64,000 nt of DNA. Origin: Marsupella aquatica (lineage: Eukaryota; Plantae; Marchantiophyta). The notes beneath the pieces were generated by a model. That model did not search any database. It was given only the letters and a program-made list of their open reading frames with translations, and was not told where the DNA came from. The position numbers and the translations under genes were made by a program. The stretch spans positions 15,158,645 to 15,222,644 of the forward strand of contig OZ316893.1 of the NCBI GenBank assembly GCA_973895155.1, given 5' to 3'. The stretch's first letter is position 1, and the number at the start of each line of letters is the position of its first letter. Positions 2,320-58,645 of the stretch are shown here, in pieces.

Positions 2320-4676
2320 TGTGACAGGGCCCCAAACCTGGTAGTAACTTAGTAATGACTTATAATTGCGTATATAAGTAGAAAGACAACTAGGTGTAGC
2401 AAAAGTGTTTGGATTTTCAAATTTTAATTTTTTATTGGTTTAATAAATTGATGCGGCAACCGGAGGCCGGAGTTAAGAGGGGTGTCAAGCGGTGATGGAT
2501 GACAATGGAGCCATTGAGGGGTACAAGGAGGCCAAAAGACAGCCCAAGGACTTGGAGGGCAAGGTGTGGGCATCTCGGATGGGTGGAGGCTGGCCGGAGG
2601 CTCCACATAAGGCGCAAAATGGGAAGAATGATCAAAATATAGAATACGTTGAAATTTAAAATAGACGTTGTTGTGCTAGTACTATTCCAAACATGGTCAT
2701 GTTTGGATTCATTTTGAAGCCCTGAATGAGCCCCATGCAAAACTGGGATTTCCTAGTTGATATTAGGTCTGTATCAAACTGTGGCATCTTGAGGGACCTC
2801 AAGGCCCGTAAAACAACAAAACTAGACAATCTTGGAGTAGTGATGGTGGGAGGGCCGTTAGAAGGAAGGGGCTCCCACATTTTCCTTACTCACCCATAGT
2901 CTCCCACATTTTCCTTCCATATCCGTAGTCTCCCAGAGTTTCCTTCCTCATCCGTAGTCTCCCACATTTTCCTTCCTCACTCCGGGCCCCCACACTTTCT
3001 TCCTTCACTTTTTCTCTTTTCTCACTCGTATGTACGGACCCTGGTCCTACAACCATCAGATTTTTTACCATCTTAGAATCAAGAGTTTACGGGCTTTTGG
3101 AAAGAGCTCGCCGAGCCAATCCAATGATGTGTCACATGGCCAAAATAGAGCTAAGATGAAGGAGATAGGGTTTAGGGTTTAGGGTTTTTTGAGAATATGG
3201 GAGTTTTGAGGCTGTACGGACGTCCGTACTACAAGATGTCCCGGCTTTCCAAGGGAAGGAGGAAGTAGCAACACCTACAAGGACCGTGATCTGTGTTTTG
3301 AAAAGCCAGGGTGGTGTGTTGTACGGATGGAGAGGAGGGAGACGGTGCCCCAATTATGATAAAAACATAAACAACCGTATCTCGACCGTTTGACCTCTGT
3401 TTTGTGCGTTGTTTATGGAGCCGTGATCAGGAAGAGCAAGGCTCCTAAGATATTTTATCAGAAGTGAATATTAAGAACATTTTAGTTTTGACAATTGTTT
3501 GGGGCCCCTCCTTTTACGGTGGACTGGTGGTGGCAATAAAGAGGATAGTAGGCCATACGGATGTTAGCCGTATGGATTATCATTTCCAACACATCTAAGA
3601 ATGGTCAACTCACGGGCTTGGAAGGAGTTTGAGGAGCCAGTTCCGGCAAGGTGTGGCGCTCCCCAAACGGAGCCAAAACAAATAAGTTATGAGCCCAGGA
3701 GTTTTGGTAGTTTTACGGATTGAGACCCCCGTAACTCGGCCATTTGGGATCCATTTTGGGAGCCGTTTACGGATCCGTGATCAGGAGGAGCAGGGATGTC
3801 CAAGGATCTCCTCAGGGGAGTAGTTTGAATTATCTTAGGTTTTGACCATGGTAGGGCTCCCTCACTTTTCACGGACTACGGATTGTAGCTGGCACCGTCA
3901 AAGGCACAATTAGTTCCATAGTTAGGTTAGGGTTCTATGGGGCATGTGTGTGCCGCATGTTTTAGATTAGTGGATTTTATGAATAGGGTTTAAGCGGCGC
4001 CGCTAGTGTAGCCGCCATCGTTGTGACCCCGTGAGGGATGCTTTGGTGTGGTTGTAGTATTTAGGAGGGAGCCCCATAGTGAATAGTGGGGGAACTCAGT
4101 CTAGTTTTGAGTGTTAGCTTGTAGCATAGAGAGGAAAGTCAGTTGGAGTAGTGAGGTGAGAAGTATTCATTGTCCTAATGAGGCAGGAGTTGAGTAGATG
4201 GTAGGAGGCCGGGTTGCTCATGCTATGTATTACTTTTTCCCCAAAAGATATGGATTTAGCTTGACTCTGCAAAGTTTGTTACGTGTTATGATCTCGTTTC
4301 TTTCATAGTTGTGTTCTTCTCGTAGCCGTTTTGGTGTATTCCTTGTGAAAGGACCCACTAAGTGGATTCTTGAAAGAAGTTACTTTGCAAGGTCTAGTCG
4401 GCCTTGTGAGTGTGAGGAGTGGTGACAGCACTCCACTAGAGACCAAGAGGAAAATAGAGAGTGCAGACCATGGGACTTGATAAAATGAAGGGTGAGCCAA
4501 TCGGCAAACTTGATAAAAAAAATGCAATTTGGGGAGCGAAAACAAATCTACTCATTCCTAGCATGATAAAGTCTAAATAGCGTTCCTCCATGTCCCTATG
4601 ATGCAATTAAAATGGTATTGGTTGTGAAGAAGTGGAAATATATGTACTCAGGGGTTTCATTTCCACAAAAATGACA
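2320..4676 (+). mobile_element. Degenerate solo LTR of the giant-LTR gypsy family, short variant without the ORF
   Basis: Starts TGTGACAGGGCCCC (the family LTR starts TGTGACGGGGTCCC) and ends ...ATGACA. 3030-4600 aligns to the reverse complement of 6360-7450 (e.g. GCGGCGCCGCTAG.GTAGCCGCCATCGTTGTGACCCC, GGAAAGAGCTCG). Flanks CATGG/CATCA match only 3/5. Confidence 0.7.
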
Positions 4677-5239
4677 CATCACGTATGACGAAGTATAAGG
4701 TCATTTTATTGGTTGAAAGAGAAGACTTAAGAAATTTTTCGAGAAGAACAATATGGTATTTTAAATCAAATTTTGAGACTTATAAGAACATTAGGGTCCT
4801 TATAACCAATTTTTTGGAATTTTCTAAGAATATTCTAACTTTATAGGGGTTGAAAAATAACTTTTTTATTTTAGGGGGTCTGAGGCCTAAAAATGTCATA
4901 GGTGATGGGGAGGGATCTATATAGTGAGACCCCCAAGTATATGTAGTTACTGTTCAATAAACAGACGACACGTAGTGTTTGCTTCAGTTCAAAATTATGG
5001 ACAAAGGCAAAGATGAAGGCAAATCAATGCACATTAGCATTGATTAGTCGTATCTAAGTAGCTGCCCACCTTTGGCTGCCTTTGGAATTAAGCTATATAG
5101 TAGGCATGGTTGGGTTTGGACATCAGCTACAACATATTTTTTGAAGGTTTTTTAATTTTTAGCCAGTGTGGCAAATGTCAGCAGCTCTAAGGAAGGAGAT
5201 GCTAGGAATATCCTTAGTCAAATTTTACTAGATTACATC

Positions 5240-5583
5240 TGTTGAGCATAGACGACAATCGCAACGGCAAGCCCATGAACCATCCAACGCACAAGAGTCG
5301 ACATAGAGAGATACATGGTTCACCTCCCCATGAGGCTATGTCCACAGGAACACACATGAGCTTTACTGCACTCTAGCCCGACCGTTCATACCAAGCATCC
5401 ACAGCGCAAGCTCCCTCTATCTCTCAACTAGCTCCGTAACAATGAGCCCGAGTTCCACTCTCCAAGCAAACACCGCTTGGTTATAGAGTGTGCATAGAAT
5501 GACTAACCTAACCAAGTCTACGACTAAGGTTAGCCTTAACTATGGTACAATCGTAACTCTAGACCTAAGAGTAAATCCTAACG
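5240..5583 (-). mobile_element. Solo LTR of the Ty1/copia family seen at 52573-59066
   Basis: Begins TGTTGAGCATAGACGACAATCGCAACGGCAAGCCCATGAACC like the copia LTR and ends AGAGTAAATCCTAACG. TSD ACATC/ACATT. Lacks the 18-bp array. Confidence 0.9.
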
Positions 5584-5716: not shown

Positions 5717-5867
5717 TTTTGGGGGAGGTGGAATTTGACTAAAATTCACACCTAAAAAGTACGTTGATCAGCTGCCCCAAGGCTGGCTGGTAGAGCATGT
5801 GAGTCAAGTGAAATAGGTTCTTGGATTGTAGGTGCAAAATTTTGCCAAATTCCACCTCCCCCCAAAA
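5717..5867. repeat. ~38-bp inverted repeat pair (MITE-like hairpin)
   Basis: TTTTGGGGGAGGTGGAATTTGACTAAAATTCACACCTA ... TAGGTGCAAAATTTTGCCAAATTCCACCTCCCCCCAAAA. Confidence 0.6.
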
Positions 5868-6297
5868 CGGAGATAAGTAATCTCATCAATTATCATTGAA
5901 GTCCATCAGTGAACTTGATATAAGTTGTCATGTCATCTTAGAGAGGCACCCGAGTTGTGGCGTGAAAAAAAAGGCAAAAAATAAGTTCGATTTCTTCTAT
6001 CAAAATTTGAGGTTAAATCTTCACTATGGGGTGTCCATATTGTACGGACACCCCATCTTGGTGAGGTCAGCCAAGATGGGGGCACGTATGTACGGTATGG
6101 ACACTAAATGTTTTGGACAAAAAAATCTGACATTTTTGTCAAAAAAAGTTTTGGTTTTTCTTTCCATCTATACGCCCATCTCAGCGAGGTCAGCTTAGAT
6201 GGGGCCTATCTGAGAGACCTAAGAGAGGTGCAAGGCTCTATCTCAACTGCATAACCAAGGTTCACACAAACATTTGACAAAATGATTGATAATTGAT

Positions 6298-9200
6298 TGT
6301 CACTTGCCTATCCAACGATTAATATGTGCAAACCGTACTTTTCTTTGCTCAAACCGTTGGTATCGTATTACGGGGTCGTGGAGGGACGCTATTTGGAGGA
6401 TTTCCACACCTAAGGATGAGTATGTTTGATTCCGCTCCCGGAAGTGTACTTTTTGATCAAGTCTACCGACTGGTCTCTCCGTTTTTGATCAAGTCCAAGG
6501 GACTGGTCCTACCATCTACAACTCATGCCCACCGGGTGAGTGCTGTCACCACCCCCCTCTCATGGACAAGCATACAAACGTTTACAATAAGGTTTGAACA
6601 CTAGTGACAAGGGCAAATGTTTCCACAATGAAACCGACCACATGCACTAGGGGAGGAAAACAAACAACAGAAGCAACAACAAGTGACACACAAAATATTG
6701 GAACCTCAAGCCAAATCCATATCTCTTGGTGTTTCCCATAACACATGCAAGGGCAACCCGGCCTCCTGCCGTCTGCCCAACTCCTGCCTCCCGGGGACAA
6801 GTGCTACGTTCTCCACCTCACTACTCTGGCTTGAATTTCTCCTAATCGGTGCGCTACAAAAGCTACTCAACAGCATCAAAGCACTACGTTGAGTTCCCCC
6901 CCAAACTACTTTGGGGCTCTCCCCCTAAATACCGAAAAAACCACACCAAAGCACCCCTCATGGGGTCACAACGATGGCGGCTACCCTAGCGGCGCCACTA
7001 AAACCCTGCACTAAGAAATCCCTAAACTAAAAAGGCATGCGTCACACACATGCTGCTAAAACCCTAAACCCTAAACAAGGGGCCGACGGTGCCTTCGACG
7101 GCGCCCCAACTGTACTCCGTGAACCCTGAAATTGCAAGGCACCCCACAATGGCTGAAACTAGGTGCCCTATCAACTGTACTTTTGAGCTCACCCTTGGAT
7201 AGCCCTTCTCCTCCTGATCCCGAATCACTCAGCCGCACTCGCAACGGACATCGGACGCCTGAGTTATGGTCGTTTCCGTATCGAGAAAACACAATTTTGT
7301 CGGGCCATAACTTGCTCATCCTGACTCTGTTTGAGGAGCGCCGCCTCTTGTTGGAATCAGCTCCGCGAGCTCTTTCCAACGAGCCCGTGAGTGACCCCTC
7401 ACAAAAAATTTGGAAATCCAGAGGCCGTACAACCACATCCGTACGACTATCTACTCCTCCTCTTCTTCACTCTCGGTGCCCTGGCTTGTGCCCCGTGAGT
7501 GGGCCTCCTCTTCATCACTCACGGGAGTGAGTGCCACCTCACTTTTCTTCTTCTTTATTGGGGTACTCTTCGTGCTGCCGCTCCCTTGCTTCCTCAAAGT
7601 GGCCAAGGCCTGCCACGCCTTGATGTACCCCTCACCAATGGTGTCCTTCCATAGGGTAGCCTCTTCTCCGGACCGCAACTCCAACGGTAGAACTTGCCCT
7701 GTGGCCATGGGAGTCCCGGGGGTGACAGACCTGGGTGGCATCCCCGTACTGACCTGAGCCTCCCGTAACGATTTCCGTACCTCCCGGAGCTTCTTCTCCA
7801 AGCCCTTGCTCTTCTCTTGACTCTTCTTGGCTCCATCCAACAAGGGCCCATACTTCCCACTAACCTCCTTCACCACCATCTCAATAGCCTGGGAGATCAA
7901 ATCCGGGGAAAGTGTGGAGCTAGGTGTGCCGAGGCTCTTCCGTTTCCCAAGACTCAAGGCCTCACTCCTCTTTGCTCGTGTCTCAAAGGCGGCCACCTGA
8001 CTCCGTAGTGCTCCCACCTGGTTTCTCCACTCCACCACTTCTCCAAAATTCTGCTTCTCTTTGGCCAATGGTTGTCTCAACGCTCCCACCTCTTCTGCTT
8101 CCTTGGCCTTGGTGGACAAGGCTCCCTTCAAGTTGGAGATCTCTACGTGAGCTGCTTGGAGAAGCTTAACCTTCTCATGAATGGTCCCCTCCTTGGCCTT
8201 GATCACCTCCTTCAGAGACAGGGTACTCTGCTCTAACGTCTCTACTCTGGCTGAGGCGTGCTTGAGAGAATCTCTCAATGCGTGGATTAGCTTGAGTCCC
8301 TCATGGACTCCCTCTCTGAAATCCCGTAGCTCTGCCAAGTAAACATCCGGAATGTTGTAGACCAGGGGCTTTTTCGGATCTCCCACGAGTGATTCAAGCC
8401 ACTCCAACGTGTAGTCCTCATCCTGGTTTTCTTCTCCTCTATCTTCATCCCCACCGGCCGACGATGATTCCTCCGTGAGCTTCCCTATAATGGTAGTGGC
8501 AATACTCCGGATCTCCGTGGTGAGAGATGATCTCGTGTCTTCCTGTCCCGGGGAACCAATCAACCCTTCTGCCCTGGCCAATACAAATGACCCCATCAAA
8601 TGTACAGCCCCACCTGGTTTCACACTCCCGGGATCCGCGGCCAACAGCTTCTTCAACCCGTAGTACCACCATCCGTACACATGGGCTGGGTGGTTCTTGA
8701 TGTCCATAGCTACCACGAAATGCTCTTCACTCACCACCCCGGATTGCACGTTGCCAAGGACCCGTTGATGAACCTTGGCCAGGAATCCCTTATACTCAAC
8801 ATCCTTGACAGCGGAAAGAGGGATGGCAGTGGTGGAGGTGGGATTAATCACCCAAGTGGCCACCATCTTCAACGTGAGTTCTCCCCTAATGTGCCGAGGT
8901 GTGAATGAGAATTTCTGATTCCCCAAAAATAGCAGCCTAGCCAACTCCACATGGGGCACTACACGTTTGAGACATTCAAAGTAGATTCCCTCCGTTCGTA
9001 ACTCCATCCCGACCTCAATGTCCCAGCTCTTCCCCGGAGGGATGGTAATCTCCACCTTCATGAATTCTGTAACCCCAGTGGCTTGGAAAATATTCCGACA
9101 ATCCTCCATCACTTTGGCGGAGGTCTTGGGATAAATTCGACGAAAAATCCTCCTACCCACCGGTGTGGAACCTGCTGCCAATCCCGTGCTCATCGTAGCT

Positions 9201-10264
9201 TCTCTCTCTTCTCTCTCCCTTGCAATCAAAGTCTCCACGTAGTCACGGTAAGCAGCCTTGTATCTCCGAATGCGTGCCACACTAAACTCCGGTTGATCTA
9301 GCATTCATGCATCCTGAAATCAAATTCTCAATCACCAAATCCCGTCACCCGTAGCAATGTCAATTCCCTGGCCCGAAACAGCCCCCGTAGCCCAATTAAT
9401 TTATTTCTCTCAATCCCCTCCGTCGTCACTCCATGTTGCTGTCATTAATGCCCGGACAGTCCCCGCAATCCCCCATGAGTGAGCCTTGAGAAGAATTGGA
9501 GAGAAAGCTCAAATAATTGTAACATAAGGAGAAAGCTTTCCGCAATAAGGGAGAGAAACTCGAGTTTGCTTTCGGCAAGAGAAGGGTCGTGTGAAAAGGA
9601 GAAAAGAGGGGAGAGAAAAAACAACGAAAACCCCCCCGGGAGCAGCTTTTTGCCTTGCGCCCCGGAGCCCTCCTATGTCCCGACTCGCGGGAGTCCCCCT
9701 TCCTCGCAGCTCGCGGCTCGCGGCTCACTCGCGAACGCTTCCCCTTCCTCGCACGGCAGCTCGCGGACCTCCTTAGGAGGGATTTATTTAAAAACCCCCC
9801 ATACTCCTCACTCGCGGCAGCTCGCAGCAGCTCCCGCCCTCTGCAGGGCTCGCAGCTCGCTCGCGGACGCTTCCCCTTCCTCGCACGGCAGCTCGCGGCT
9901 CGTAGCTCGCAGCTCGCCCCTCGCAGAAGGATTTAATGGGGGTTTAATTAAACCCCCCATACTCCTCCAGTCCTGCCTGAGTGTTGCTTTAGAAGGGGTG
10001 TTACCAAAAAATTAAAAATGCTTATTTCCCGGACTTCCTTACCTTCCCGGAAAGTCACAATTTTAAACCCCCCCAGGTTTTTGCCCCATAATTAACCCGG
10101 GTCTAGACAAAACTGTTGGGGTCTCCGACTATCCCGAGATGCTTTAAAAAAACTTTATAGATTTAAAGAACATTTAAAAAAAACTCGCGTCTATGGGCTT
10201 ATTTATTTACAGGTGTCTTGCTGGTGACACTAATGGTGATTTACCGTGGCGGGACCCCGTCACA
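6298..10264 (-). repeat. Giant 3' LTR (3967 bp) containing a protein-coding ORF
   Basis: Starts TGTGACGGGG immediately after the PPT and runs to the TSD. A homologous unit stands alone with its own TSD at 37512-41892. Confidence 0.88.
7451..9304 (-). CDS. LTR-encoded 617-aa protein: globular N-terminal region (possibly related to Athila ORF2/env-like accessory proteins), acidic linker, long coiled-coil, basic/acidic tail
   Basis: Intact ATG-to-TAG ORF, same sense as pol. Colinear homolog at 38599-40460. Heptad-rich segment LRDSLKHASARVETLEQSTLSLKEVIKAKE..., and a PIKKKK NLS-like motif near the C-terminus. Confidence 0.85.
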   Translation of the reverse strand: MLDQPEFSVARIRRYKAAYRDYVETLIAREREEREATMSTGLAAGSTPVGRRIFRRIYPKTSAKVMEDCRNIFQATGVTEFMKVEITIPPGKSWDIEVGMELRTEGIYFECLKRVVPHVELARLLFLGNQKFSFTPRHIRGELTLKMVATWVINPTSTTAIPLSAVKDVEYKGFLAKVHQRVLGNVQSGVVSEEHFVVAMDIKNHPAHVYGWWYYGLKKLLAADPGSVKPGGAVHLMGSFVLARAEGLIGSPGQEDTRSSLTTEIRSIATTIIGKLTEESSSAGGDEDRGEENQDEDYTLEWLESLVGDPKKPLVYNIPDVYLAELRDFREGVHEGLKLIHALRDSLKHASARVETLEQSTLSLKEVIKAKEGTIHEKVKLLQAAHVEISNLKGALSTKAKEAEEVGALRQPLAKEKQNFGEVVEWRNQVGALRSQVAAFETRAKRSEALSLGKRKSLGTPSSTLSPDLISQAIEMVVKEVSGKYGPLLDGAKKSQEKSKGLEKKLREVRKSLREAQVSTGMPPRSVTPGTPMATGQVLPLELRSGEEATLWKDTIGEGYIKAWQALATLRKQGSGSTKSTPIKKKKSEVALTPVSDEEEAHSRGTSQGTESEEEEE

Positions 10265-12545
10265 TAGCTCCTCTCTTAATTGCGAAGCGTCCCCGCGAGC
10301 ACCATACTCTTCCTCCATGTAGTATTTCTTTAGGCGTTCTTGATTGATCCGTGTGTTGAGTAGTTGCCCCTCCAACGTCTTGAGTTAACTGAGCCGTTGG
10401 AGTAGACAGCGTCTACTACGTAGGGCCCCATCCAACGTGTATGCAACTTCCCGGGGAAATGCATGAAACGACTGTCGTAGAGGAGTACCAAATCTCCCTC
10501 CTCAATGGACACACGATGGAGACAGGAATTGTAATGTGACTTCCGTTTGCTTTGCTCCTGCTCCGTACGGGTCAAAGCCTCTTCTCGTGTCTCAGTGAGT
10601 TGCTCCAACTGTTGGATCCGTGCAGCTACACTTCTTTCTTCCCCTTCCCTTTCCCGTGTTAGGATCCGAATGGTGGGCACTTCAAATTCCACCGGCACAA
10701 GAGAGTGTTGTCCAAACACAAGGAAATAGGGGTTGTGGCCCGTGGTAGTCTTGTGAGCCAGGTTGTAGGCGTAAGTAGCAGCCAACAACTTCAAATCCCA
10801 ATCTGTCTTGTGAGCTGATACCGTCTTGTTAAGAATCTTGCCCATGATCCCGTTTGCTCTCTCAGTGAGCCCGTTGGCTCGAGGATGGTATGGAGTGGTC
10901 TTCCTATGTGAGATCAAGTAGTTCTCCGTCAGACGTTCAATCGTATGATTGAGAAAGTGAGTACCCCTGTCACTCACCAGCTCCAATGGGGGACCAAATC
11001 ATGTAAAAATCTGCTCGTACAAAAAACGTGCTGTGGTGTTGACATCATCCTTGGCAGTGGCTCGGGCCTCCACCCACTTTGTGGCATAGTCCGTTGCAAG
11101 AATGATGTAGCGCTTCCTCCCTCTTCTAGTGATGGGAGTGAAGGGGCCAATGAAATCAACCCCCCACTTCTCAAAGGGTGCAAGAGGAAGTATGGGCACC
11201 AAGGGGTGGCGTGAGGAGGGCCCTGGTTTGCCTTGACGCTGGCACGGATCACATCGTTGGATGTACCGGTGTACATCCCGAAAGAGAGTTGGCCACCAAT
11301 ATCCAGCATCTAGTATTTTCCTTGCGGTGGTCTCCCGTGCAAAGTGGCCACCAGCTTCCTCCTCATGTAATGCTGCCATGACTGTACGTATCTCAGCTTC
11401 CTCCAAACAACGACGAAGACGGCCATCCATGCCGTACTTGTGAAGTACTCCCCTCACAAGCAAGTAGGGACCTGTCTTACGTAAAAACACTGCTGCTCTC
11501 TCCGGGCCCAAACGTGAGGGAACTCTCGCCGTACGGAGAAATTCCAAAATTTCTCCATACCAAGTGGTGGCCTCCGTAATCACGCTGAACACTTCTTCAT
11601 CCGGGAACCGATCATCAATCTCCTGTGAGTCAGATGCTCCCTCAATACGGGAGAAGAAGTCTGCATTGCTGTGACTCTTCCCCGATCTCACTCTCACCTC
11701 ATAGTTGAACTCCTGCAGCAACAAAACCCAACATGCAATTCTCCCGGACAGATCTGGCTTGTTGACCATGTATTTCAAGCTGTTGTGATCCGTGTGGAAC
11801 ACAACCTTGTATCCCAACAAATAATGACGATACTTTTTACAAGCGTAAATGATACCAAGTGCCTCCCTATCGGTGGGTGAGTAATTCTTCTCTGCCGGGG
11901 CCAACTGCCTACTGGCAAAGTAGATGGGATGGTCCCTTCCTTCATCATCTAACTGACTCAAAATGGCACCGATGCAAAATCCTGATACGTCTACATAGAC
12001 ATGGAACTCCTTATTCCAATTGGGCGTAATGAGTACGGGAGCCTCTAGCAAACGTTTCTTCAATTCATCAAAAGCAGCCTGTCGGGATGGAGTAGGTTCA
12101 AATTCACTTCCCTTCTTCAACATGGAGGTGAGTGGCATGGCTACCTTGGCGAAGTCTTTGATGAAGCGTCGATAGTATCCAACACACCCCAAGAACCCTC
12201 TCACTTCCTTTACGTTCTTGGGAAATGAGACTGCTACCCACACGACCACCTTCTCACGGTCAACTTCAATCCCCCGTGCAGACACTTTGTGGCCCAATAG
12301 GATCCCCTCCTCAATTCCAAAGAAACATTTCTCAGGATGCAGCTTCAAGCAAGTCTCTCGGCACCGCTGAAAAGTCAACCGTAAGTGTTCCAGATGCTTG
12401 ACTCGTTTGCCATAGACAGCAAAGTCATCAATAAAGATCTCCAAGAACCTGCGTAAAAAGGTCATGAAATATATTCATTATGAGCCGCTGGAACATGCCA
12501 GGGGCATTGCACAACCCAAAAGGCATTCTACGAAATGCAAAAATT
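10241..12545 (-). pseudogene. pol: Gypsy pol remnant (RT C-terminal half, RNase H, integrase)
   Basis: AFRRMPFGLCNAP, FLEIFIDDF (RT), YVDVSGFCIGA (RNase H), H..GGH/CDPCQ zinc finger, WGVDFIGP, LVSDRGTHF, GLTERAN, GKLHTRWMGPY. Defects: frameshift near 12460, TGA at 10999-11001, frameshift near 10385. Confidence 0.95.
10265..10280 (-). promoter_or_regulatory. Polypurine tract of the gypsy element
   Basis: Minus strand reads ATTAAGAGAGGAGCTA directly before the LTR start TGTGAC. Confidence 0.75.
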
Positions 12546-13102
12546 GCAGCTCGCGGCTCGCGGCTCACTCGCGGACGCTTCCCCTTCCTCGCACGGTAGC
12601 TCGCGGACCTCCTTAGGAGGGATTTATTTTAAAACCCCCCCATACTCCTCACTCGCGGCAGCTCGCAGCAGCTCCCGCCCTCTGTAGGGCTTGCAGCTCG
12701 CTGGCGGCTCACGGCTTGCTCGCGGACGCTTCCCCTTCCTCGCACAGCAGCTCGCAGCTCGCAGAAGGATTTAATGGGGGTTTAATTAAACCCCCCATAC
12801 TCCTCCAGTCCTGCCTGAGTGTTGCTTTAGAAGGGGTGTTACCAAAAAATTAAAAATGCTTATTTCCCGGACTTCCTTACCTTCCCGGAAAGTCACAATT
12901 TTAAACCCCCCCAGGTTTTTGCCCCATAATTAACCCGGGTCTAGACAAAACTGTTGGGGTCTCCGACTATCCCGAGATGCTTTAAAAAAACTTTATAGAT
13001 TTAAAGAACATTTAAAAAAAACTCGCGTCTATGGGCTTATTTATTTACAGGTGTCTTGCTGGTGACACTAATGGTGATTTACCGTGGCGGGACCCCGTCA
13101 CA
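12546..13102 (-). repeat. Truncated 5' LTR (first ~557 bp only)
   Basis: Near-identical to 9706-10264 and fused directly to RT coding sequence at 12545. Confidence 0.9.
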
Positions 13103-15068
13103 TTGATATCAGTCACTAATAATTGATGAAATAATTGACCCCAAAAAGTGTTTTCCACTTTTGGCTAAAATTTGTTTAGTTAGATTCTTTTATGCATGTC
13201 ATTTGCCACTTTCCCACCAAAGCATGGACCCTATGTGGTAGCATCTAATGGTCGTCAGTAATCTAAGGATACCTAGCGGTCAAAATATAATCCAAGGAAA
13301 ATTAATAAAAAAATATTCCTCACATCTCCTCCCTTAGAGCGACTTACATTTGCCACATTGGCTAAAAAGTTGCGTGAGACATTTGAGGGTTTGGACCCCC
13401 TAGTATAAGTGACTATTTGTTTTTTGCAAAACCATTTAGACTTTCTTTAAATTTTGTCCTTTTTTTACTAAAAAACCCTTTAAAACTTTTTAAAATGTTT
13501 TTTACAATTAAATAAGCCTATTTGTTCTTTAAAACTAACCCAGTCAATAAAGCATACCCTATTTGTTATTCCATCAAAATTTGGAAGTATTCCGCCACAC
13601 CCATTTAAATGGGCCTATATTTCATCGCACATGATGTGTGACCCCCTAAGGGACAAACCTCTAGAGAGGTGAACCATTTATCTCTTCTGTTGACTAGTTG
13701 TGTATTTGTTGGATGTTGCAAATTATGTGCATATTGTTTGAATGACAATCATTGACTCAAAAGGTTTTTGGTATACTTGATCATTTGTTTGGGCAACTTT
13801 TTGATTTTGTTTAAGCTCAAATGTTTCCAACATGTTTTTGGATGTCCAATCTATTATTTGAGAAATTTGCATACTTTCTGAAACAATTTGTTCCATTCCG
13901 GATGACCACCAAGATGGTCAAATATTGTACAATGGACATTGATTTCATTTTTGTGAAATACGGGTTAAATATTTAGGCATGAGCAACAACTTACCACTTT
14001 TGGTAAAAACAAATTCAGGTTTGAGAAGGACACCCTAAGTTGTTTGGGTAAAAGCCCAAGTGGAAGGAGGTCATGATCGGCTACAGTGACCCATGGGTAG
14101 TTTGGGCTGCAAGCTAGAATCTTCGTTGTTGCAAAGGATTCATGAGTACTTTGGGCCACAACTTGGTCTCCTCACTAATAATAAGATCATTGTGAGTACT
14201 TTGGGCCATAGTTTGGGCGCCAATGGCCACAGTTTGGACGCTTCAGTTTAATAAAAGTGTTGTAAGTACTTTGGGCCACTCTGTGGGCGCTAGTAGTTTG
14301 TGAGCAACACTGCCAATAACTGAAGCAATTTTAGAGGGGCAGTGAACTATGAATGATGCTACACGTAATGGAAGTGATGAAGTGGACAAGAGGTAGGGGA
14401 TTGTAATGACCTCCAACTACTAAAGCAAGGTAGTGATAAGGTAATGTAACTGAAACAGGTTGCAAACAGTATGTTTTGCGTTTACAAGTCAAATTTCAAT
14501 CAAATTATAAGGTGCTCCCCAAGTCTTTTATAGAACTTTTGGGCTAGTCCATCCAAGCCAACCCACCAGTCCAACCATGGTCTATTTTTGTTCACTTAAG
14601 TTGTTATTTTGAAGGGAATATGTACAAAAAGAAAAAGTAAAGCTTGCACAGCCACAAAGACATGTAAATAGCTAGGAATAATCAACTTTATTTAATGCAA
14701 TTTAGCTTTTTCTTTTGGAAACAAGGGGAGCAACCCTCTCTATACCAACCATAGGGGCAAAAACCACAATAGGAAACACTGATACCAATTGCACTGGGGG
14801 AGGCTGGGGTCTTGTGGCCTAATTAAAGGAGAACCACATTAATTAGGCCACAAGGCCCTAAAAGACCCACTAGAGGACAAGCTAGAGGGTCACACCCGTG
14901 GGAAACCAGAGAGGAAATTGATGATCAAAGACTAACCTGGTTGCTCATTTTCTCATTCTTCCTACAATTTGTATCCTTATCCTTACAAGGCTCTTGGAAT
15001 TTTACCAAAGTACCATGCAGGTAACCAAGCAATCATCAGCTTCATTCCAAGCTCTACTGGCAAATTAA

Positions 15069-17992
15069 TCCATGGACCCCCATGTTCATCCAAGGAATGT
15101 GTGTTTGATGAAGTGAAATCAATTTTCAACAAGGCGGTAATCGACGGTTTTGAGTCTCCCGATGGTCTTGGTGTGTGCTCGTACAAAAGAAAACACTCAA
15201 AAGATAGAGGAGATTTATCAACGGAAGGTTGAATACGGAGGAATTGAGTTTTTTGACTGTTTTTGCTTACACATTGGAAAAATTGTTTCTATCATTCATG
15301 ATTGATCGTTCGTGAGTTATATTGAGCATTACTGCCACAAGACAGACTGAAGGACAACACTTAGCTATTGGCAAAAGAGCGCTTGTCGATTCGGTGGGAA
15401 GAACACACAAAACAAACAAGTCATCGCTTCACATGAAGGATTTGTAGTTTTTTTATTTAAGAAAGCTATGGTGTGAGAGGGAGACCAACGATTGTTTCTT
15501 TGACATAGAGGCTGCATTTGGCATCAACCTATGTTCAGAGTGAGCTTCAGTTGAAGACAAGGGATGACGATGCAATCAAAAAAATCAATTTTCAACAGCT
15601 AAGTTTGTGACGGTGATGAGATTGTGATATCTCTTAATCGAGAAAGGGTTTCCAATGAGCCTCAGATTCACAAAATTTGTCAAGTTCCAAATGAGTTTTG
15701 AATTTCTTTGCCTTTCCAATGAGTGTGAGTATAAGAAAAATTGATCATGAGTCCATGAATTCTTTTAGCTTTCCAACATTGAGTCCGACATTGACAAATT
15801 TTACGTCAGATTTTGTCACGATACTAAAGAGATCATGAGGTTTTCAATCTCTCTAGCTTTCTAATGTGTGACATTGAGATTATTCGTCAAGAATTAGAGA
15901 GATCATGAGTATCTGAATTTCTCTAGCTTTCCAATGAACCTAACATTGATAGATTTTGTCAAGTACTAAGGAGATGATGAGGTTTTAATTTTACTTTAGC
16001 TTTCCAATGAGTGTGACATTGAGAGATTTTATCAAGACAATACTAAAGAGGTCACGAGTTTCTAAATCTTGATCTTGAGTTTTCCAATGAATCAAACATT
16101 GACATATTTTATCAAGTACTAAGGAGATTGATTATTTAGTTTTACAATGTGAAGCCAAAGGGGTTTTAACTATGTACATTTTTATTGGTTGGTTTTTTCA
16201 AGCTTGCAAACAATTAAAAAATATAAGCATTTTGATATAAAACACTGATATATCTTTGATAAATATAAAAATGGTAACTTTATTTTACTAAATGACATAT
16301 CTCCCTTTGTATTTTGGTTTTTTTTACGTTCAATATTTACGGCATGGCGCTCCAAAAATTACGTTGCTTTTGCCACAAACAGGAATGTGCACGTTTGTTA
16401 TTGTTAAAAGTAGGATCATTCCTGTTTGTGGCTGGTTGTGGTGATGTGGCGCAACCTCGTGGCAGGAAATTTGCAAGAGACCTCTCATGGGGGTCCGTAA
16501 TTAATCCATGGACCCCCATGTTCATCCAAGGAATGTTTGTGTGATTAAGTGAAATCAATTTTCATCAAGGCGGTAACCAACGGTTTTGAGTCTCCCGATG
16601 GTGTTGGTGTGTGCTCGCACAAAAACAAATGCTCAAAAGATAGGATTTATCAAACGGAAGGTTGAATGTGGAAGAATTGAGTTTTCTTATAGGTTTTGCT
16701 TACACATTGGAGAAATCATCTTTCAACCATTCTTGATTGATTGTTTGTGAGTTATATTGAGCATTACCGCCACAAGACAGACTAGAGCACAACACTCAGA
16801 TGTTGGCAAAAGAGCGTTTGTCAATTTGGTGGGAAGAACACACAAAATGAATGAGCCGTCACTTCAAACAAAGGATTTGTAGTTATTTTTATTTAAGAAA
16901 GCTATGGTGTGAGGGGAAGACCAACAATTGTTCTTTGACATAGAGGCTGCATTTGGCGTCAACCTGTGTTTAGAGTGAGCTTTGGTTGAAGACTATCTAA
17001 GAGATGCGAACAATTCAAGTCGGGAAGCAAGCATTGTGGACAAGCGATGGTGACATAATCAAAGAAATCAATTTGTAGCGGCTAAGTTTGTGACGGTGAC
17101 GAGATTGTGATATCTCTTAATCGAGAAAGGGTTTTCAATGAGCCTCAAATTGACAAATTTTGTGAAGTTCCATATGAGTTTTTGAATATCTTTGCCTTTC
17201 CAATGAGTGTTAGTATAAAAAAATTTGATTATGAGTTCATGAATTCTTTTAGCTTTTTAGCTTTCCATTGAGTCTGACATTTACAAATTTTATGTCAGAT
17301 TTTGTCACGGTATTCAAAAGATCAGGAGGTTTTCAATCTTTTTAGCTTTCTAATGTGTGACATTGAGATTATTTGTCAAGAAATAGAAAGATCATGAGTA
17401 TCTAAATTTCTCTAGCTTTCCAATGAACCTAACATTGATAGATTTTGTCAAGTACTAAGGAGATGATGAGTTTTTAATTTTACTCTAGCTTTCCAATGAG
17501 TGACATTGAGAGATTTTATCAAGACATTACTAAAGAGGTAACGCGTTTCTAAATCTTGATCTTGAATTTTCTAATGAATCAAACATTGGCAAATTTTATC
17601 AAGTACTAAGGAGATTTATTATTTAGTTTTACAATGTGAAGCCAAATGGGTTTTAATTATGTACATTTCTATCGATTGATTTTTTCAAACTTGCAAACAA
17701 TTAAAAAATACAAGCATTTTGATATAAACCACTGATATATCTTTGACAAACATCAAAATGATAACTTTATTTTACTAAATGACATCTCTTCCTTTGTATT
17801 TTGGTTTTTTTTTACGTTTAATATTTACGGCATGGCGCCCCAAAAATTATGTTGCTTTTGCCACAAACAGGAATGTGCACGTTTGTTATTGTTAAAAGTA
17901 AGATCATTCCTGTTTGTAACTAGTTGTGATGATGTGGTGCAACCTCATGGCAGAGAATTTGCAAGAGACCCCTAACGGGGGTCCGTAACTAG
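15069..17992 (+). mobile_element. Two head-to-tail copies of a ~1.45 kb non-autonomous Helitron-like element (15069-16504, 16505-17992)
   Basis: Each unit starts A|TC. The last unit ends with hairpin GACCCC-TAAC-GGGGGTC then CGTAACTAG|T. The junction reads CGTAATTAA|TC. Internal ~60-bp subrepeats (CTAGCTTTCCAATGAG...). Confidence 0.7.
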
Positions 17993-18309: not shown

Positions 18310-18900
18310 AACCAGACAAAACCTACTATATTCAACATAGAAGTATGATTTGTGATGTATACACTTTACAAGTTGTATTCAGATTTCACACTATCTTAGA
18401 ATTTTTTCATTCCCTTCAACGTCACAAAGATGCCACCCGCCGAAGCCTACCCAAATGGACAAAACCTACAATATTCAACATAGAAGTAGGATTTGTGATG
18501 TATACATGTTGCATGTTGTATTCAAATTTCACACTTAAGAAATTTTTGATTCCCTCCAACTTTACAAAGATGCTGCCCGCTGAAGCCTGCCCAATCGGCA
18601 AAACCTAAAATATTCAACATAGATGTAATTTGTGATGTATACATGTTGCACGTTGTATTTGGATTTTCACACTTAGAAAAAAATTCATTCCATTTGACTT
18701 TACAAAGCTGCCAGTCGTTGAAGCGTGCCCAAATGGACAAAACCTACCATATTCAACATAGAAGTATGATTTGTGTGTCATACATTGTGCACAATGTATT
18801 CATAATTCAGACTTGGAAATGTTTTCATTCCCTTCAACTTTACAAAGATGGTCGGGCCTAAATGGACAACAACATGTCATATTCAACACAAAGACGTGTT
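18310..18900. repeat. ~140-bp tandem repeat, 4-5 diverged units
   Basis: ACAAAACCTA..ATATTCAACATAGAAGTATGATTTGTGATGTATACA recurs near 18317, 18459, 18599, 18738 and partially 18870. Confidence 0.8.
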
Positions 18901-21508: not shown

Positions 21509-22693
21509 GTGGCTTCATCTCCGTGGCTTCATCGACAACTCTGTCTTCCTATTTCTCACGGTGGTTTTGGGCTTACTTCCACTGAGCGTCTTGCACCTTT
21601 GGCCTTCTTGGGCGCATGGGCGGCCGCCTTCTCATTGTTGGCAAATCGTTTCCTTATTGAGGATCGAACTTTTTTACTTTCGTCTCTCATGGAGGTCGAG
21701 GAGGGTTCCCTCCCATTTCAGGTTCATTTGCGCACGACGCGGTCATCATTACCCGATCCCATTCGAGCTGCGTTACCTTCATTCTAGGAGTTTTTATCCT
21801 TGGACCCCGTCCATCTTCAGGCAGACCTTGCTGGGCGTATGCATGCTTTCACCCTCTCCAGCATCCTCACCGAGGCACCTGACACGGACCGAGCTCGGAT
21901 TCTTTCTTCCGGAGGGAAGGGCGCAGGAGGCTGGCTTTAGGCCAATCCAGTCATTCCTCACCTGTGGATGTCTTCAGCGGAGTTTGCGACAGCCATGCGT
22001 CTTCGTATGGGCTTGCCCCACCCACTTCTTGCTGGTTTACCTCCTACTTGCACTTGTGGGAAGCCTTGTGATGCCACAGGTGTCCATCTTCTTCGATGCA
22101 ATTTGGGCGGCGAAACCATTTTTGTTCACGACGCTGTGAGAGATGCGACTGCTCAAGTTCTCTCTGGCTCTTTGGTCTGCGCGCGGCGGGAGGTGGTGCT
22201 CGAGTTACCTGGTCCTCCATCACAGCGGTTACGGGTGGATCTTACCATGGTCCGTGAAGGTCACCGTACTTTGGCAGATGTAGTGGTGGCAAACCCATTG
22301 CGCCAAGACATCATTGGGACAGCGACAACAATGGCAGGGGCAGCAGTATCACGAGCAGCAACAACGAAGGAGGCCAAATATGCTGCACGAGCTTCATCTG
22401 ATAGCTTCCTGCCCCTTGCTTTTGAGATATTTGGGCGTCTCCATCATCAGTTCGACGGGCTTCTTCGCCAAGCTGCTCGGGATGTTCACGGCCGGATGGG
22501 TCCCACGGTATCTGTTTTGACCACGCACTTTCGCCAACGCATTTCAGTCACCTTATAGCGTGCTCAAGCTCGGGCTGTCTATCGTCGATCTCTGACAGTG
22601 GGTGCTAGTGTGACTCCGCAGCGGCTAGCCCCCCTAGAGGACATTCCTGTCCCACTTGCCGATCTAGTTTCGACACTTGATGTAGACCACTAG
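21509..22693 (+). mobile_element. 5'-truncated CRE-like non-LTR retrotransposon (post-RT region, zinc knuckle, restriction-like endonuclease); 3' UTR to about 22940
   Basis: One frame with two TAG interruptions (21785, 22556): LPISHGGFGL, RLRMGLP...CTCG..CDATGVHLLRC...VHDAVRD, RVDL, LADVVV, KEAKY, FLPLAFEIFGRL, RISVTL*RAQA. Confidence 0.8.
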
Positions 22694-32429: not shown

Positions 32430-32749
32430 TGACACTTAGATATTTACTCGTAGGGTCTAGAGTAACGACTAGTACTGTAGTTTCAAGGTTGCTAGGTTAA
32501 CTGTGTTACATACTATATACACAAGCAAGACGTGCTCACTTGTGAAAAGAACCTAGGCTCATTCTTAGGGAACCACTTGAGAGATACTCAGAGCTTGTGT
32601 CCGTGTGAACTTGGTATGGTCAACGGGCCTAGACTACAATAAAGCTTTTGTGTGTTCCCGTGTACATAGTCTCATCAGAAATGAACCACGTATTTGTTTG
32701 TTAGATTGGCACATGTACGTGTCGTTGTGAGCAATGTCTTTACTCAACA
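32430..32749 (+). mobile_element. Diverged solo LTR of the copia family
   Basis: TG...CTCAACA with perfect TSD CTTTG. Aligns to the reverse complement of 52573-52993 (GGCTCATT, CCACTTGAGAGATA, TGTGTGTTCCCGTG, GAACCACGTAT). Confidence 0.85.
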
Positions 32750-37511: not shown

Positions 37512-40500
37512 TGTCACCTGCTTATGAAATGATTTACACGATAAATACGTATTTTCTCCTACTAAAATAGTTTGTTATCATATGACGGGAACGTGGAGGG
37601 ACGTTATTCAGATTCTATTGCATGTAGGATGAGTATGTTTATTTCCGCTCCCGGAAATATAATTTTTGATCAAGTCTATCGACTAGCCTCTCTGCTTTTG
37701 ATCAAGTCTCATGGATTACACCACACACCCTCCTGCTGGTCGCTAGTGGGGTGCTGTCACCACCCCCCCTATTCACATGGATGACCAATCCGTGCAAGCA
37801 TTCCTTAGACACTTCTTGGGGAAAGAACACAATCGTGACACAGAAAAGATAACGCCACACCAAGACTTCAGTAATCAAACCAAATCCATATCTTTTGGTA
37901 ACAAATCGTAACACATTGCAAAGACAACCCGACCTCCTGCCTCACTGGGGCAAGTGCTACACCTCTACCTCACTACTCTGGCTTGATTCCCTCTTTTGGC
38001 TATGAGATAACTTCTATAAACCAACACTAGACTAAGTTCTCCCTAGTTACTCCGGGGCTCTCCCCTTAAATACTGAAAACAAACACACCAAAGCACCCCT
38101 CACGGGGTCACCACGATGGCGGCTACCCTAGCGGCGCCGCTAAAACCTTATCACCAACAGGTAAACATCACTAAACCCTAGCGGTATGTGGCACACACAT
38201 ACCCCTAAACCCTACCTAACTAAGGGACCGACGGTGCTTTCGACGGCGCCCCACAATATCACTCTGTAAATCGCGAAAATATAAGAGGCCCCACAATTGC
38301 TGAAACTAGGTGCCACTCTGATTTCACCTCTGAGCTCTCTCCTGGGTAGCCCTGCTCCCCCTGATCATGAATCACCAAACCGCACCGGAAACGGATATCG
38401 GACGACCAAGTTATGGTCGTTTTAGTTTCACGTACTTACCAACTTCGTCGGGCCCTAACTTACTCATCCTGGCTCCGTTTGAGGAGCGCCGCCTCTTGTT
38501 GGAATCAGCTCCGTGAGCTCTTTCCAACAAGCCCGTGAGTGCCAAATTCTGAAAAGATCAAAAGCAAGAGGTTGTACGACCAAGTCCGTACGGCTACCCT
38601 AGTCCTCCTCCTCCTCACTCACAGTGCCATGGCTTGAGCCTCGTGAGTTGGTCTCCTCATCACTCTCAATTGGAGTGGATACCACTTCGCTTCTCTTCTT
38701 CTTCACCGGGGTACTCTTCCCACTAGTGCTCCCTTGCTTCCTCAACACCGCCAAGGCTTGCCAAGCCTTGATATACCCCTCACCGATGGTATCCTTCCAC
38801 AAGGCAACTTCCTCCCCGGATTACAACTCCAACAGTAAAACCTGCCCGGTGGCCCTGGGAGTCCCTGGTGTCACAGATCTGGGCGTCATCCCTAGTGTAC
38901 CCGTATTGACTTGGGCCTCCCTTAACGACCTACGTACCTCCTTGAGCTTCTTCTCTCCAAGCTCTTATTCTTCTCCTGATTCTTCTTGGTTGCTTCCAAC
39001 AGGGGACCGTACTTCTCAATGACTTTCTTCAGCACCATCTCAATGGCTTTGGAGACCAGGTTAGGAGAAAGCATGGAGCTAGGTGGGTAGGGACTCTTCC
39101 GTTTTCCCAGACTCAAGGCCTCACTTCTCTTGGCCCTAGTCTCAAAGATCCCCAGCTAACTCCGTAGTTCTACAACCTGTCCTCTTAACCTCCCCTTTTC
39201 TCCCGAGTTCTGCTTCTCTTTGGCCAATGCTTCTCTTAGCACTCCAACTTCCTCCGCTTCTTTGGCCTTGGTAGACAAGGCCCCTCTCAAGTGAGAAATC
39301 TCCACTTGAGCCGCATGGAGAAGCTTGGCCTTCTCTTGTATGGCCTCCTCCTTAGCTTGGATCACCTCCTTCATCAACGTGGCACCCTACTGCAATGTTT
39401 CCACCCTTGTGTTGGCCTGCTTGAGTGCATCTCTCAATGTATGGGCTAGCTTGAGCCCCTCATAGATCCCTTCACGAAAATCCCGTCATTCCGCCAAGTA
39501 TACCTCTGGAATGTCGTAAGCAAGGGGCTCCTTTGGGTTCCCCACCAGAGATTCAAGTCACTCCAACGTGTAATCCTCATCTTGGATGTCTACCTCAACT
39601 TGACTGTCTCCCGTTCCTGCTGGCACCTTTGTTAGTTTCCCCAAGATGGTAGTGGCAATGCTGCGGATCTCCGTGGTAAGAGGTGACCTAGCTTCTTCAG
39701 GTCCCGAGGAGGCAATCAATCCTTCTGCCCTGGCCAACAAAAATGACCCCATCAAATGCAACGCTCCCCCTGGTTTCAGACTCTTCGGCTCATTGGCCAA
39801 TAGTTTTGTCAATCCGTAATACCACCATCCGTAGGCATGGGCTGGATATTTTTGAATATCCAGAGCAATTATGAATTGCTCCCCATTCACTACCCCGGAT
39901 TGCACATTACCGAGGACCCGTTGATGAACCTTGGCCAGAAATCCCTTGTCTGCTGCATCCTTGACGGCCGAGAGATGAATGGTCGTGGTGGAGGTGGGAT
40001 TGTTCACCCAACAGGCCACCATTGTCAACATGAGATCCCCGATTATGTTCCGGGGGGTGGATGAGAACTGCTGGTTCTCCAAAAACAAAAGCTTAGCCAA
40101 TTCGGCATGAGGCACCAACCGTTGAATACATGCAAAATAAATCCCCTCCGTGCGCAATTCCATTCGAGTCTCCAGGTCCCAACTCTTCCCTGGAGGGATT
40201 CTAATCTCTACTCTCATGAAGTCGGTGAGCCCGGTGGCTTGGAACATAGCCTTGCAATCTTCCATCACCCAGGCAAAGGTCTTGGGGTAAATTTGACGGA
40301 AAATTTTCCTCGTGACTGGTGCTGGACTTACTGTCGGTCCAATGCTCATTGTTGCCTTTCTTTCTCCTCCCCTCCTCTCAATCAATGTTGCAATGTAAGC
40401 CCGGTATGCCGCCTTGTATCTACGAATGCGAGCCGCACTGAACTCGGGCTGATCAAGCATCCATGCTCCAGGAAAAAATCCCCAATCACAAAATCCCGTC

Positions 40501-41892
40501 ACCCATATCTCGTAGCAAATTTCCAATCCCTGGCCCGAAACGACCCCCGTAACTTGATTAAACACCAGCAATCAAACCTCGGGAAAAACCCGTCGCAAAG
40601 AGCCCGTACTCACTTCACAAAAGCGTCGGATAAGTTCAAGGTGACCGGGTCGGCGAGAGGGGGTTACCCAAGAGCTCACGAAAATAATGGAGTGAGGAAA
40701 GAGGTGGAATGCTTTCGGCAATGTGCGAAGTCATGAAGTGGTTTCGGAAATGCGCGGAGGGAGAAAAAAAAAACCCCTAAAGACAACCCCGTAGCCTCCT
40801 TTCACACTCTAAATTGACCCTCGCAGGTGCACCTCGCTCCCCGGCTGCTCCTCCCGGTTTTGTACTCGCGGGGCCCTTTTGGGGGATTTAACCCCCCCCT
40901 TTTTCCTCCTAAATCCCCGAGCGCCCGACAGCCTCCAACTCGCCCTGGCAGCTCTTGCGTTGGCGCCTGGGCACAACTCCCTATGCAGGGGGCACGACCT
41001 CGCTCCTGCGCCCCCACTCACTGCCTCCCTGCTGCCCTCTCACCTTACTCTCCTACGCCACCTTCACACTCTCACTGCTGGCGGGAGGGCCTTGGGCTCC
41101 CCCGCCACCTGGCCTGCTATCATTATGGAGGGCTTGCCCCCCCGGCTGTCTTAAGCGCCCCGCTCCGTTGCGCCTCGGCCAAGCCTGCCATATGTCGGGG
41201 GGTTTAATTCTCCCCCCCTCTCGCGCTCGCTCCTGGCTCACGGGCTCGCGGTAGCTTATGTACCACCTGGCCTGCTATCATTATGGAGGGCTCGCCCCCC
41301 CGGCTGCCTTAAGCGCCCCGCTCCGTTGCGCCTCAGCCAAGCCTGCCATATGTCGGGGGGTTTAATTCTCCCCCCCCCTCTCGCGCTCGCTCCTGGCTCA
41401 CGGTGCTCCTTTTATATTCGCCTCACGGGCTCGCGGTAGCTTATGTACCCCAGTGAGGATTCCACGTGGCGGCCCCAGGGCTGCCCCTTATGGGGTCCCC
41501 CAAGTGCTCTTATGCAAGGGGGCTCGTCTGCTCCCTGGGTTCCCTGCTGCCGTCACACAAACCCCCCCCCCCTCCGCTTAACACAAAAAATTAGTGCTCC
41601 TCCCCTAGACCTTGCTATTGCGGTCTCAAAAAAAAATGGCCTAAGGGAAACAGGATGTCCGACCATTCTAGCCCTAGTTCCAAGGTCCCAACATGCTTGA
41701 TTGCTGGGGCGCCGTAGGCATCCAAACTATTAGGGTATAAAAGTAAGTAGAGACCTCTGGGGCATAGCAACCTATAAGGACGGAATTAACTCAAAAAAAT
41801 ATTTTAAAACGGCTTATTCACAATGGTTATTTACATGGCACAACCCCACTAAACAACTATCAAGGATTTTCAGTGACGGGAACCCCGTCACA
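37512..41892 (-). mobile_element. Solo giant LTR (4381 bp) of the gypsy family
   Basis: TGTCAC...CCGTCACA termini and perfect TSD GTTTG (37507-37511, 41893-41897). Colinear with 6298-10264. No pol sequence. Confidence 0.92.
38599..40460 (-). pseudogene. Disabled homolog of the LTR-encoded 617-aa ORF
   Basis: MLDQPEFSAARIRRYKAAY... through ...SHGTVSEEED, with a TGA at 39558 where the intact copy has TGG, plus further stops and frameshifts. Confidence 0.9.
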
Positions 41893-52572: not shown

Positions 52573-52993
52573 TGTTGAGCATAGACGACGATCGCAACGG
52601 CAAGCCCATGAACCATCCAACGCACAATAGTCGACACAAGAGATACGTGGTTCACCTCCTTGAGGCTACGTCCACGGGAACACACAAGAGAGCTTTACTG
52701 AACTCTAAGCCCGTCGGCTATACCGAGTCTCCACAGTGTAAGCTCTCCCTATCTCTCAAGTGGCTCCATAACAATGAGCCTTGGTTCTACCTCTCCAAGC
52801 ACACATGCCTCTTATGATATAGTGTGCAACTTAGTTGTACCTAACCACATAGTTGTACCTAATCACGTAGTTGTACCTAACCACATAGTTGTACCTAATC
52901 ACGTAGTTGTATCTAACCACGTAGTTGTACCAACCCACGTTGTTGTACCAACCACGTCATACCTAACCTAGACGTAAGAGTAAATACCCAACA
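52573..52993 (-). repeat. Copia 3' LTR
   Basis: Direct repeat of 58646-59066, preceded on the minus strand by PPT AGTCAAGGGGAAGAT (52994-53008). Confidence 0.97.
52832..52957. repeat. 18-bp tandem array (~7 units) in U3 of the copia LTR; also at 58905-59030
   Basis: TAGTTGTACCTAACCACA / TAGTTGTACCTAATCACG units. Confidence 0.9.
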
Positions 52994-53183
52994 ATCTTCC
53001 CCTTGACTCTGGTCTAGGGGAGAGTAATACTGCCAATGTATATGATCCCTCAGCGGGAAGTTCTGGACAGAACCAAACCGGTTTCCCTCTCTAACTAGAG
53101 CAAACCAGAACTAAGCCGTAGCCTAATACATAGGAATGAGGAAGAGCATATATCAGTAATTACAATGAATGTTTAAGAAAACT

Positions 53184-58630: not shown

Positions 58631-58643
58631 TGCTCTGATACCA
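58631..58643 (-). promoter_or_regulatory. Primer binding site, initiator tRNA-Met
   Basis: TGGTATCAGAGCA, 2 bp inside the 5' LTR boundary. Confidence 0.95.
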
Positions 58644-58645
58644 AT

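Follow-up and report, generated by a model that had tools for sequence, protein, structure and literature searches.

Can the long terminal repeat (LTR) of a plant retrotransposon carry a protein-coding gene of its own? In plants, LTRs count as non-coding and solo LTRs as dead remnants, and surveys of extra open reading frames (ORFs) look upstream and downstream of the polyprotein. The question is raised by a 64,000-nucleotide stretch of contig OZ316893.1 (the window), in which a first-pass annotation had reported a Ty3/gypsy LTR of about 4 kb encoding an intact 617-residue protein. Here we analyzed this element (element A) and two related LTRs of the same window (B and C). We read the locus as a Ty3/gypsy element, likely from a liverwort, whose 4-kb LTR holds a conserved 617-aa gene, likely placed in U3 and likely coding for a VANC/PMD-like anti-silencing protein, and this reading as a whole is given an even chance of being right.

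Element A is a single, internally deleted Ty3/gypsy insertion on the minus strand (6298-13102) with the target-site duplication (TSD) TTGAT at each side. Its order is 5′ LTR remnant, deletion joint in the middle of the reverse transcriptase (RT), RT-RNase H-integrase, polypurine tract (PPT) and 3967-bp 3′ LTR. On the minus strand TGTGAC, at 10264, comes right after the PPT-like AATTAAGAGAGGAGCTA, and the far end of the unit is GTGACA at 6298, adjoining TTGAT; the TG...CA termini, the 5-bp TSDs and a PPT adjoining the 3′ LTR are Ty3/gypsy hallmarks. Comparison of the window with itself gave a second copy of the first 557 bases of the unit at 12546-13102; the match of this remnant to the beginning of 10264-6298 identifies the 3967-bp unit as the 3′ LTR of element A. 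Between the remnant and 10264-9706 there are 7 differences in 538 aligned bases and two repeat indels (Kimura two-parameter distance 0.013), so the insertion is young. A short-LTR reading of 6298-10264 was excluded, as the 557-bp start has no second copy inside 6298-9705. The first-pass positions of the PPT, of TGTGAC and of TTGAT beyond 6298 all hold, with a matching TTGAT at 13103-13107, and its view of the whole 3967 bp as one LTR is borne out by the TSDs of two independent insertions and by the 5′ LTR remnant. We are highly confident of this architecture, an LTR with the ORF inside it.

The ORF has 617 codons, lies inside the LTR and runs on the same strand as pol, as had been annotated; when the LTR was shuffled 200 times, no stop-free stretch exceeded 277 aa. 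Its second copy is in LTR B, which has the termini of LTR A, its own TSD GTTTG and no pol, and is therefore a solo LTR. Alignment of A and B gave 76% identity over 6781-9389 (2.6 kb) and 75% over the last 200 bp, and the first 0.9 kb of A and the first 1.4 kb of B are unrelated save for the terminal 20 bases or so and one short motif. The earlier description of B as the same unit standing alone thus stands for TSD, termini and ORF and fails for the 5′ parts, the two units not being identical along their length. The first 20 bases of the LTR (41872-41892 and 10245-10264) can fold back on themselves, perfectly in B and with one mismatch in A.

The ratio of nonsynonymous to synonymous substitution rates (dN/dS) between the A and B ORFs is 0.18 (bootstrap 0.14-0.24; 615 aligned codon pairs), with dS 0.91 and dN 0.17. 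The differences fall on codon positions 1, 2 and 3 as 107, 92 and 241, and dN/dS is 0.08-0.28 in all six segments of the ORF. Among the control frames, four gave 1.0-1.5 and the antisense frame that shares third positions gave 0.25. This pattern shows purifying selection on the ORF along the lineages leading to both insertions.

LTR C is a probable relative which shares the promoter-bearing 1.07 kb and has neither the ORF nor the G-run/AT/C-run motif described below; no ORF remnant was found in it by tblastn or by profile. Its two flanking 5-mers, CATGG and CATCA, agree at three of their five positions. At the place which the ORF takes in A and B, LTR C has degenerate duplicates of the post-ORF segment (2900-3580), with a 29-bp repeat and three TAGGGTT telomere-type units. 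The coordinates of all these features are collected in the table.

Table. Features of element A and of the related LTRs B and C (window positions)
Feature	Position	Strand	Basis or remark
TSD TTGAT, left copy, element A	6293..6297	.	sequence match
3′ LTR of element A, 3967 bp, TGTGAC...GTGACA	6298..10264	-	TSD, termini, remnant
TATA-like GTATTTA	6926..6932	-	invariant in LTRs A, B and C
Intact 617-aa ORF, sense to pol	7451..9304	-	inside 3′ LTR of A
Leader conserved between A and B	9305..9390	-	TTTCAG acceptor-like site in A only
Subfamily-specific 5′ part of LTR A	9390..10264	-	CpG-rich, repeats
Polypurine tract, directly after integrase end	10265..10281	-	
Broken pol: 3′ part of RT, RNase H, integrase	10290..12545	-	Pfam
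5′ LTR remnant (first 557 bp), deletion-joined directly to RT	12546..13102	-	
TSD TTGAT, right copy, element A	13103..13107	.	beyond 5′ LTR remnant
Solo LTR B, 4381 bp, TSD GTTTG both sides	37512..41892	-	termini as in LTR A
Broken ORF copy in solo LTR B: 5 stops, one frameshift, ~70% aa identity	38600..40460	-	
Probable related LTR C without ORF	2320..4676	+	post-ORF 1.07 kb common at 65%

Depth was taken from contigs of four public sequencing runs (X1-X4) over 5900-13500, with 32 of more than 13,000 pieces listed. No RNA run is among the sequencing runs listed for this sequence, which has no bearing on expression. In X3, three ORF pieces have depths of 1583-1599 and two pol pieces 719-725, with single-copy flanks at 19-20 and non-coding LTR sites (7013-7116) at 1627-1792. 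The corresponding X4 depths are 6035-6330 for four ORF pieces and 3108-3136 for three pol sites of the variant tables, and the single listed pol piece, which is diverged, has 527. The depth of the ORF is thus about twice that of pol in two of the four runs, which is the ratio expected of an LTR and supports the ORF being inside it, depth not being copy number, as the analysis tool itself warns. Depth is low over the first 0.8 kb of LTR A in each of the four runs (122-280 against 2400-5500 elsewhere in X3), so the window copy comes from a minor subfamily; the dominant subfamily has a different LTR 5′ end.

The placement in U3 follows from the box GTATTTA, if this is the TATA box of the genomic RNA. 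The first-pass annotation had put the ORF in U3 because of a TATA-like sequence near 6925; the box has proved invariant in A, B and C, and on this ground the U3 placement is likely. Over 9305-10264 the observed/expected ratio of CpG is 0.93, and the 5′ part of LTR A has 7-bp GCGAGC-type repeats and two G-run/AT/C-run motifs starting at 9958 and 9800. Of 11 matches to this motif in the window, 10 are inside the 2951 bases of 5′ U3 parts, counted on both strands, whereby palindromic sites (two in A and the remnant, one in B) are counted twice. No resample out of 2000 by a Markov model reached the observed counts; the pattern was drawn from the very sequences scored, so this shows no more than local occurrence. 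The motif could be a promoter of the ORF or a binding site of its protein.

The protein is composed of a basic N-terminal domain (about 1-250, pI 9.5), an acidic linker, a coiled coil (about 320-520), a KKKK cluster at 584 and an acidic tail. Exhaustive HMMER searching with the first 280 residues gave 8 matches, of which 6 are credible. Five of these are unnamed fragments with 44-59% identity, and the sixth (P0125) is a 596-aa protein of Calypogeia fissa with the same domain order, matching at 28% over 189 residues (pairwise E 1e-19) with a weaker second match before the coiled coil. P0127 and P0128 were rejected because they match over short stretches within long, repetitive proteins whose content is unrelated. 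The first 25 residues (9200-9304, minus strand) hardly vary among A, B and fragment P0121 (44% identical) and are missing from the Calypogeia homolog; they are possibly a separate interaction motif. A word-based search found none of 7996 candidates with the full ORF and one of 7995 with a two-sequence profile of the N-domain, and neither the word-based nor the HMMER searches gave a related named host protein.

For the fold of the N-domain, sequence search of solved structures gave nothing with the domain and a best E of 0.14 with its profile. The AlphaFold models of the window protein are too poor for use (mean predicted local distance difference test score, pLDDT, 41.7 and 34.6), and a fold search with the latter gave generic helical bundles only (best Z 6.6), which is uninformative. 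The Atlas model of the Calypogeia homolog, which is 28% identical and has a mean pLDDT of 0.51, aligned at a template modelling (TM) score of 0.57-0.67 over 172-186 residues in 8 of 10 rows, below the naming bar of the tool. These eight rows are unnamed or plant-type clusters, and five carry Transposase_32, ATHILA, PMD or DUF1985. The Atlas feature scores of the window protein itself put ATHILA and Transposase_32 clusters at 0.83, a range that shuffled proteins often reach. We regard a PMD/Athila-type fold of the N-domain as fairly likely.

The pol is broken by two frameshifts, one in RT and one close to its end, and by a stop in integrase, and its domains RT, RNase H and integrase are in Ty3/gypsy order. 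Among the best 120 of 517 matches, the closest named relatives come from two liverworts, Calypogeia fissa with up to 70% identity and Riccia sorocarpa with 57%, and the host of the retrotransposon is likely a liverwort. Pfam gave no chromodomain in the last two integrase frames and the PPT directly follows, which speaks against a chromovirus. No additional RNase H was found between RNase H and integrase or after integrase in the preserved part, the region upstream of RT being deleted. The RT and integrase motifs are presumably Athila-like, to judge by their look. The pol appears to fit a non-chromovirus without additional RNase H, of the Athila, Phygy/Selgy-like or liverwort Tat Z2 kind (PMC6317226, PMC13468544, PMC10508981), and Tat Z2 of liverworts also has no additional RNase H (PMC13468544). 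The lineage motifs do not occur in the small supplement text of PMC6317226 and PMC10508981.

During reverse transcription, whatever lies beyond the PPT ends up in both LTRs. As the PPT here comes right after integrase, an accessory ORF behind it becomes part of U3, is doubled with each insertion and is kept in solo LTRs. A vestigial PPT with TG after the ORF, as the mark of an older LTR boundary, is not common to A and B. We propose that an Athila-type extra ORF may have been absorbed into U3 in this way; both LTRs of each new insertion would then carry the gene, and LTR-LTR recombination would leave one copy. Transcription of the ORF would begin at a second promoter located within the 5′ 0.9 kb of U3, much as P2 drives sag of mouse mammary tumour virus (MMTV). 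Its protein would oligomerise via the coiled coil and bind, with the N-domain, the subfamily-specific repeats of the same 0.9 kb, and as a VANC/PMD-like nuclear protein it would keep the LTR of its own element free of host silencing.

PMD proteins oppose H3K27me3. In Marchantia many transposons are marked with H3K27me3 (bioRxiv 827881). PMD is similar to the DUF1985 domain found in VANC, and retrotransposons encode PMD-A proteins (bioRxiv 2024.09.27.615353). The short motifs bound by VANC lie in tandem repeats, which vary from one related element to another (PMC5735166); the repeats of the 5′ U3 are likewise subfamily-specific while the gene is conserved, and this was counted in favour of anti-silencing. 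VANC and the Athila domain have both been modelled as coiled-coil pentamers (PMC13547354). Of the three functions first offered for the protein (anti-silencing, targeting, particle-associated), anti-silencing has gained a structural lead from the Atlas fold rows; by this analogy we put an anti-silencing role at slightly under an even chance. A bolder version, in which a VANC/PMD-like anti-silencing gene would have moved into the LTR with its own promoter and fast-changing target repeats and each LTR would be a self-reinforcing cassette, is speculative and we consider it unlikely. If it were true, every LTR including solo ones would keep itself and its subfamily unsilenced, and host removal by LTR-LTR recombination would leave the anti-silencer behind.

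Several observations weigh against these readings. No element with two complete LTRs, a primer-binding site and gag was seen, element A being internally deleted, and the ORF is absent from LTR C, which makes the gene dispensable in cis. Pfam searches with the ORFs of A and B and the 8 homolog matches gave no PMD, DUF1985, ATHILA or Transposase_32 and only coiled-coil noise, and to this are added the distant homolog and the shuffled-protein range behind the Atlas results. Anti-silencing has been shown for VANC of DNA transposons and for no retrotransposon protein in the available parts of the literature examined. Besides the caution on depth given above, X1 is ambiguous (ORF-end piece 11087 against pol pieces 8488 and 10273, a ratio of about 1.1-1.3, with 5805-6205 at three other pol sites), X2 is uninformative, and one X3 piece within the LTR (6471-6735) has a depth of merely 757.

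The strongest alternative to anti-silencing leaves the gene inside the LTR and makes its product act during replication, as a particle scaffold or RNA chaperone or in nuclear import or integration targeting; it would be translated from a spliced RNA which starts in the 5′ LTR and joins the 3′ LTR, and solo LTRs would be silent. In A, a canonical TTTCAG precedes the ATG by 10 bases, Bagy2 has sense extra ORFs that are spliced (PMC7264820), a structural function would suit the long coiled coil, and the decay of solo copy B is as expected if solo copies are not maintained. The acceptor is however not kept in B, which reads TTCCTGGAG there; the basic N-domain and the KKKK cluster fit a nuclear DNA binder, and the decay of a single insertion is expected under any model. 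We regard this alternative as less than likely, though a serious one. The label env-like is often given to sense ORFs that follow pol (PMC7264820), and an envelope-like membrane protein for cell-to-cell spread could also be considered; however, no membrane helix was found, the highest 19-residue hydropathy (1.09) being too low for one, and the haemagglutinin rows have E 0.6-1.0 and cover the coiled coil only, which makes an envelope very improbable.

Two further alternatives concern the architecture. The 4-kb LTR may belong only to a minor subfamily or to rearranged copies, most members keeping the ORF internal and the 2:1 depth coming from non-autonomous copies without pol. The low depth of the first 0.8 kb of LTR A in all four runs and the lack of a complete element speak for this, but two insertions separated by a dS of 0.91 both have the ORF between TSD-flanked LTR termini, the PPT comes directly after integrase, and the X3 depth at 7013-7116 equals that of the ORF, where an internal ORF should have half the LTR depth; the idea is improbable. 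That the ORF segment is a separate element or a captured host gene, inserted into an ordinary LTR as a passenger, has scarcely any probability in our view. LTR C does have the downstream 1.07 kb without the ORF, so the module was gained or lost as a block; yet the ORF is not bordered at matching places in A and B by direct repeats of 6 bases or inverted repeats of 8, and a nested insertion with its own TSD, the case named at first as fatal to the LTR-gene reading, is therefore not what we see. Purifying selection over the whole ORF is not the behaviour of a passenger, and no named host protein was matched.

Other features of the window were recorded as well. At 52573-59066 there is a Ty1/copia element with two identical 421-bp LTRs, TSD GGGTG and open frames for gag (56748-57491) and pol (53184-56321); each LTR has an 18-bp repeat seven times, and related LTR pieces are at 5240-5494 and 32548-32693. 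A 196-aa ORF on the plus strand (21968-22558) has a C-x-C...H zinc-knuckle-like motif and no Pfam match, and we take it to be the end of a non-LTR retrotransposon. A tandem duplication of about 1.44 kb (15063-17991, 87% identity) has 70-72 bp repeats inside and is followed by a 278-bp repeat at 18317-18850. No tRNA gene was found in the window, the Rfam search gave a single row at chance level, and scans of metagenome contigs for a related locus gave 255 and 155 pattern matches, none of which was confirmed.

A selected 617-aa gene in an LTR has its dose doubled per insertion and survives solo-LTR formation. Since a single 4-kb piece unites the gene, its presumed promoter and the candidate target repeats, and a natural copy is intact, the locus is a compact test case. 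It bears on the role of Athila/Ogre/Retand-type extra ORFs, and the plant group to which it likely belongs has a tractable model in Marchantia. Plant non-chromoviruses are known to have extra ORFs and LTRs as long as about 5 kb, the typical extra-ORF domains being PMD, Transposase_28 and Athila ORF1 (PMC6317226). The first-pass statement that such ORFs are normally internal in plants agrees with a review of additional ORFs (PMC7264820), and its view that no described plant equivalent is known also stood: a full-text literature search, with most subscription papers outside it, found no plant retrotransposon with a protein gene inside the LTR, only MMTV (PMC9412291).

The nearest known system is Athila (ATHILA PF03078, Transposase_32 PF20167). 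The window element is likewise a non-chromovirus without additional RNase H in its preserved part, with a sense extra ORF whose N-domain draws these families in Atlas, and a sunflower Athila has a 487-aa sense ORF with Transposase_32 (PMC11728184). In contrast, the extra ORFs of Athila are internal in surveys (PMC7264820; PMC6317226), whereas here the PPT precedes the ORF, which is inside the LTR and has no Pfam match at sequence level. Retand (TRP28) and Retrosat2/RIRE3 (ORF0) also have conserved accessory ORFs, some with Smc-type regions, and the LTRs of Retrosat2 are also long (>3.2 kb); the ORFs of Retand, however, are antisense and lie between pol and an LTR of 0.3-1.2 kb (PMC11963269), and ORF0 is described upstream of gag-pol, with no placement in the LTR given (PMC3485330). 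With VANC of VANDAL (MuDR) elements and with the PMD proteins MAIN/MAIL1/MAIL2 there is likeness in the predicted fold neighbourhood of the homolog (DUF1985, PMD), in the coiled coil and in repeats close by whose sequence varies among subfamilies. VANC, however, is a protein of flowering-plant DNA transposons, with binding and demethylation tested, whereas the window protein is known from sequence and has no detectable sequence similarity to these proteins. Finally, sag/naf of MMTV is a protein-coding ORF in U3 that uses a second U3 promoter (PMC9412291), but in a vertebrate retrovirus and with an unrelated protein and function, whereas here a 4-kb LTR carries the gene in a plant host.

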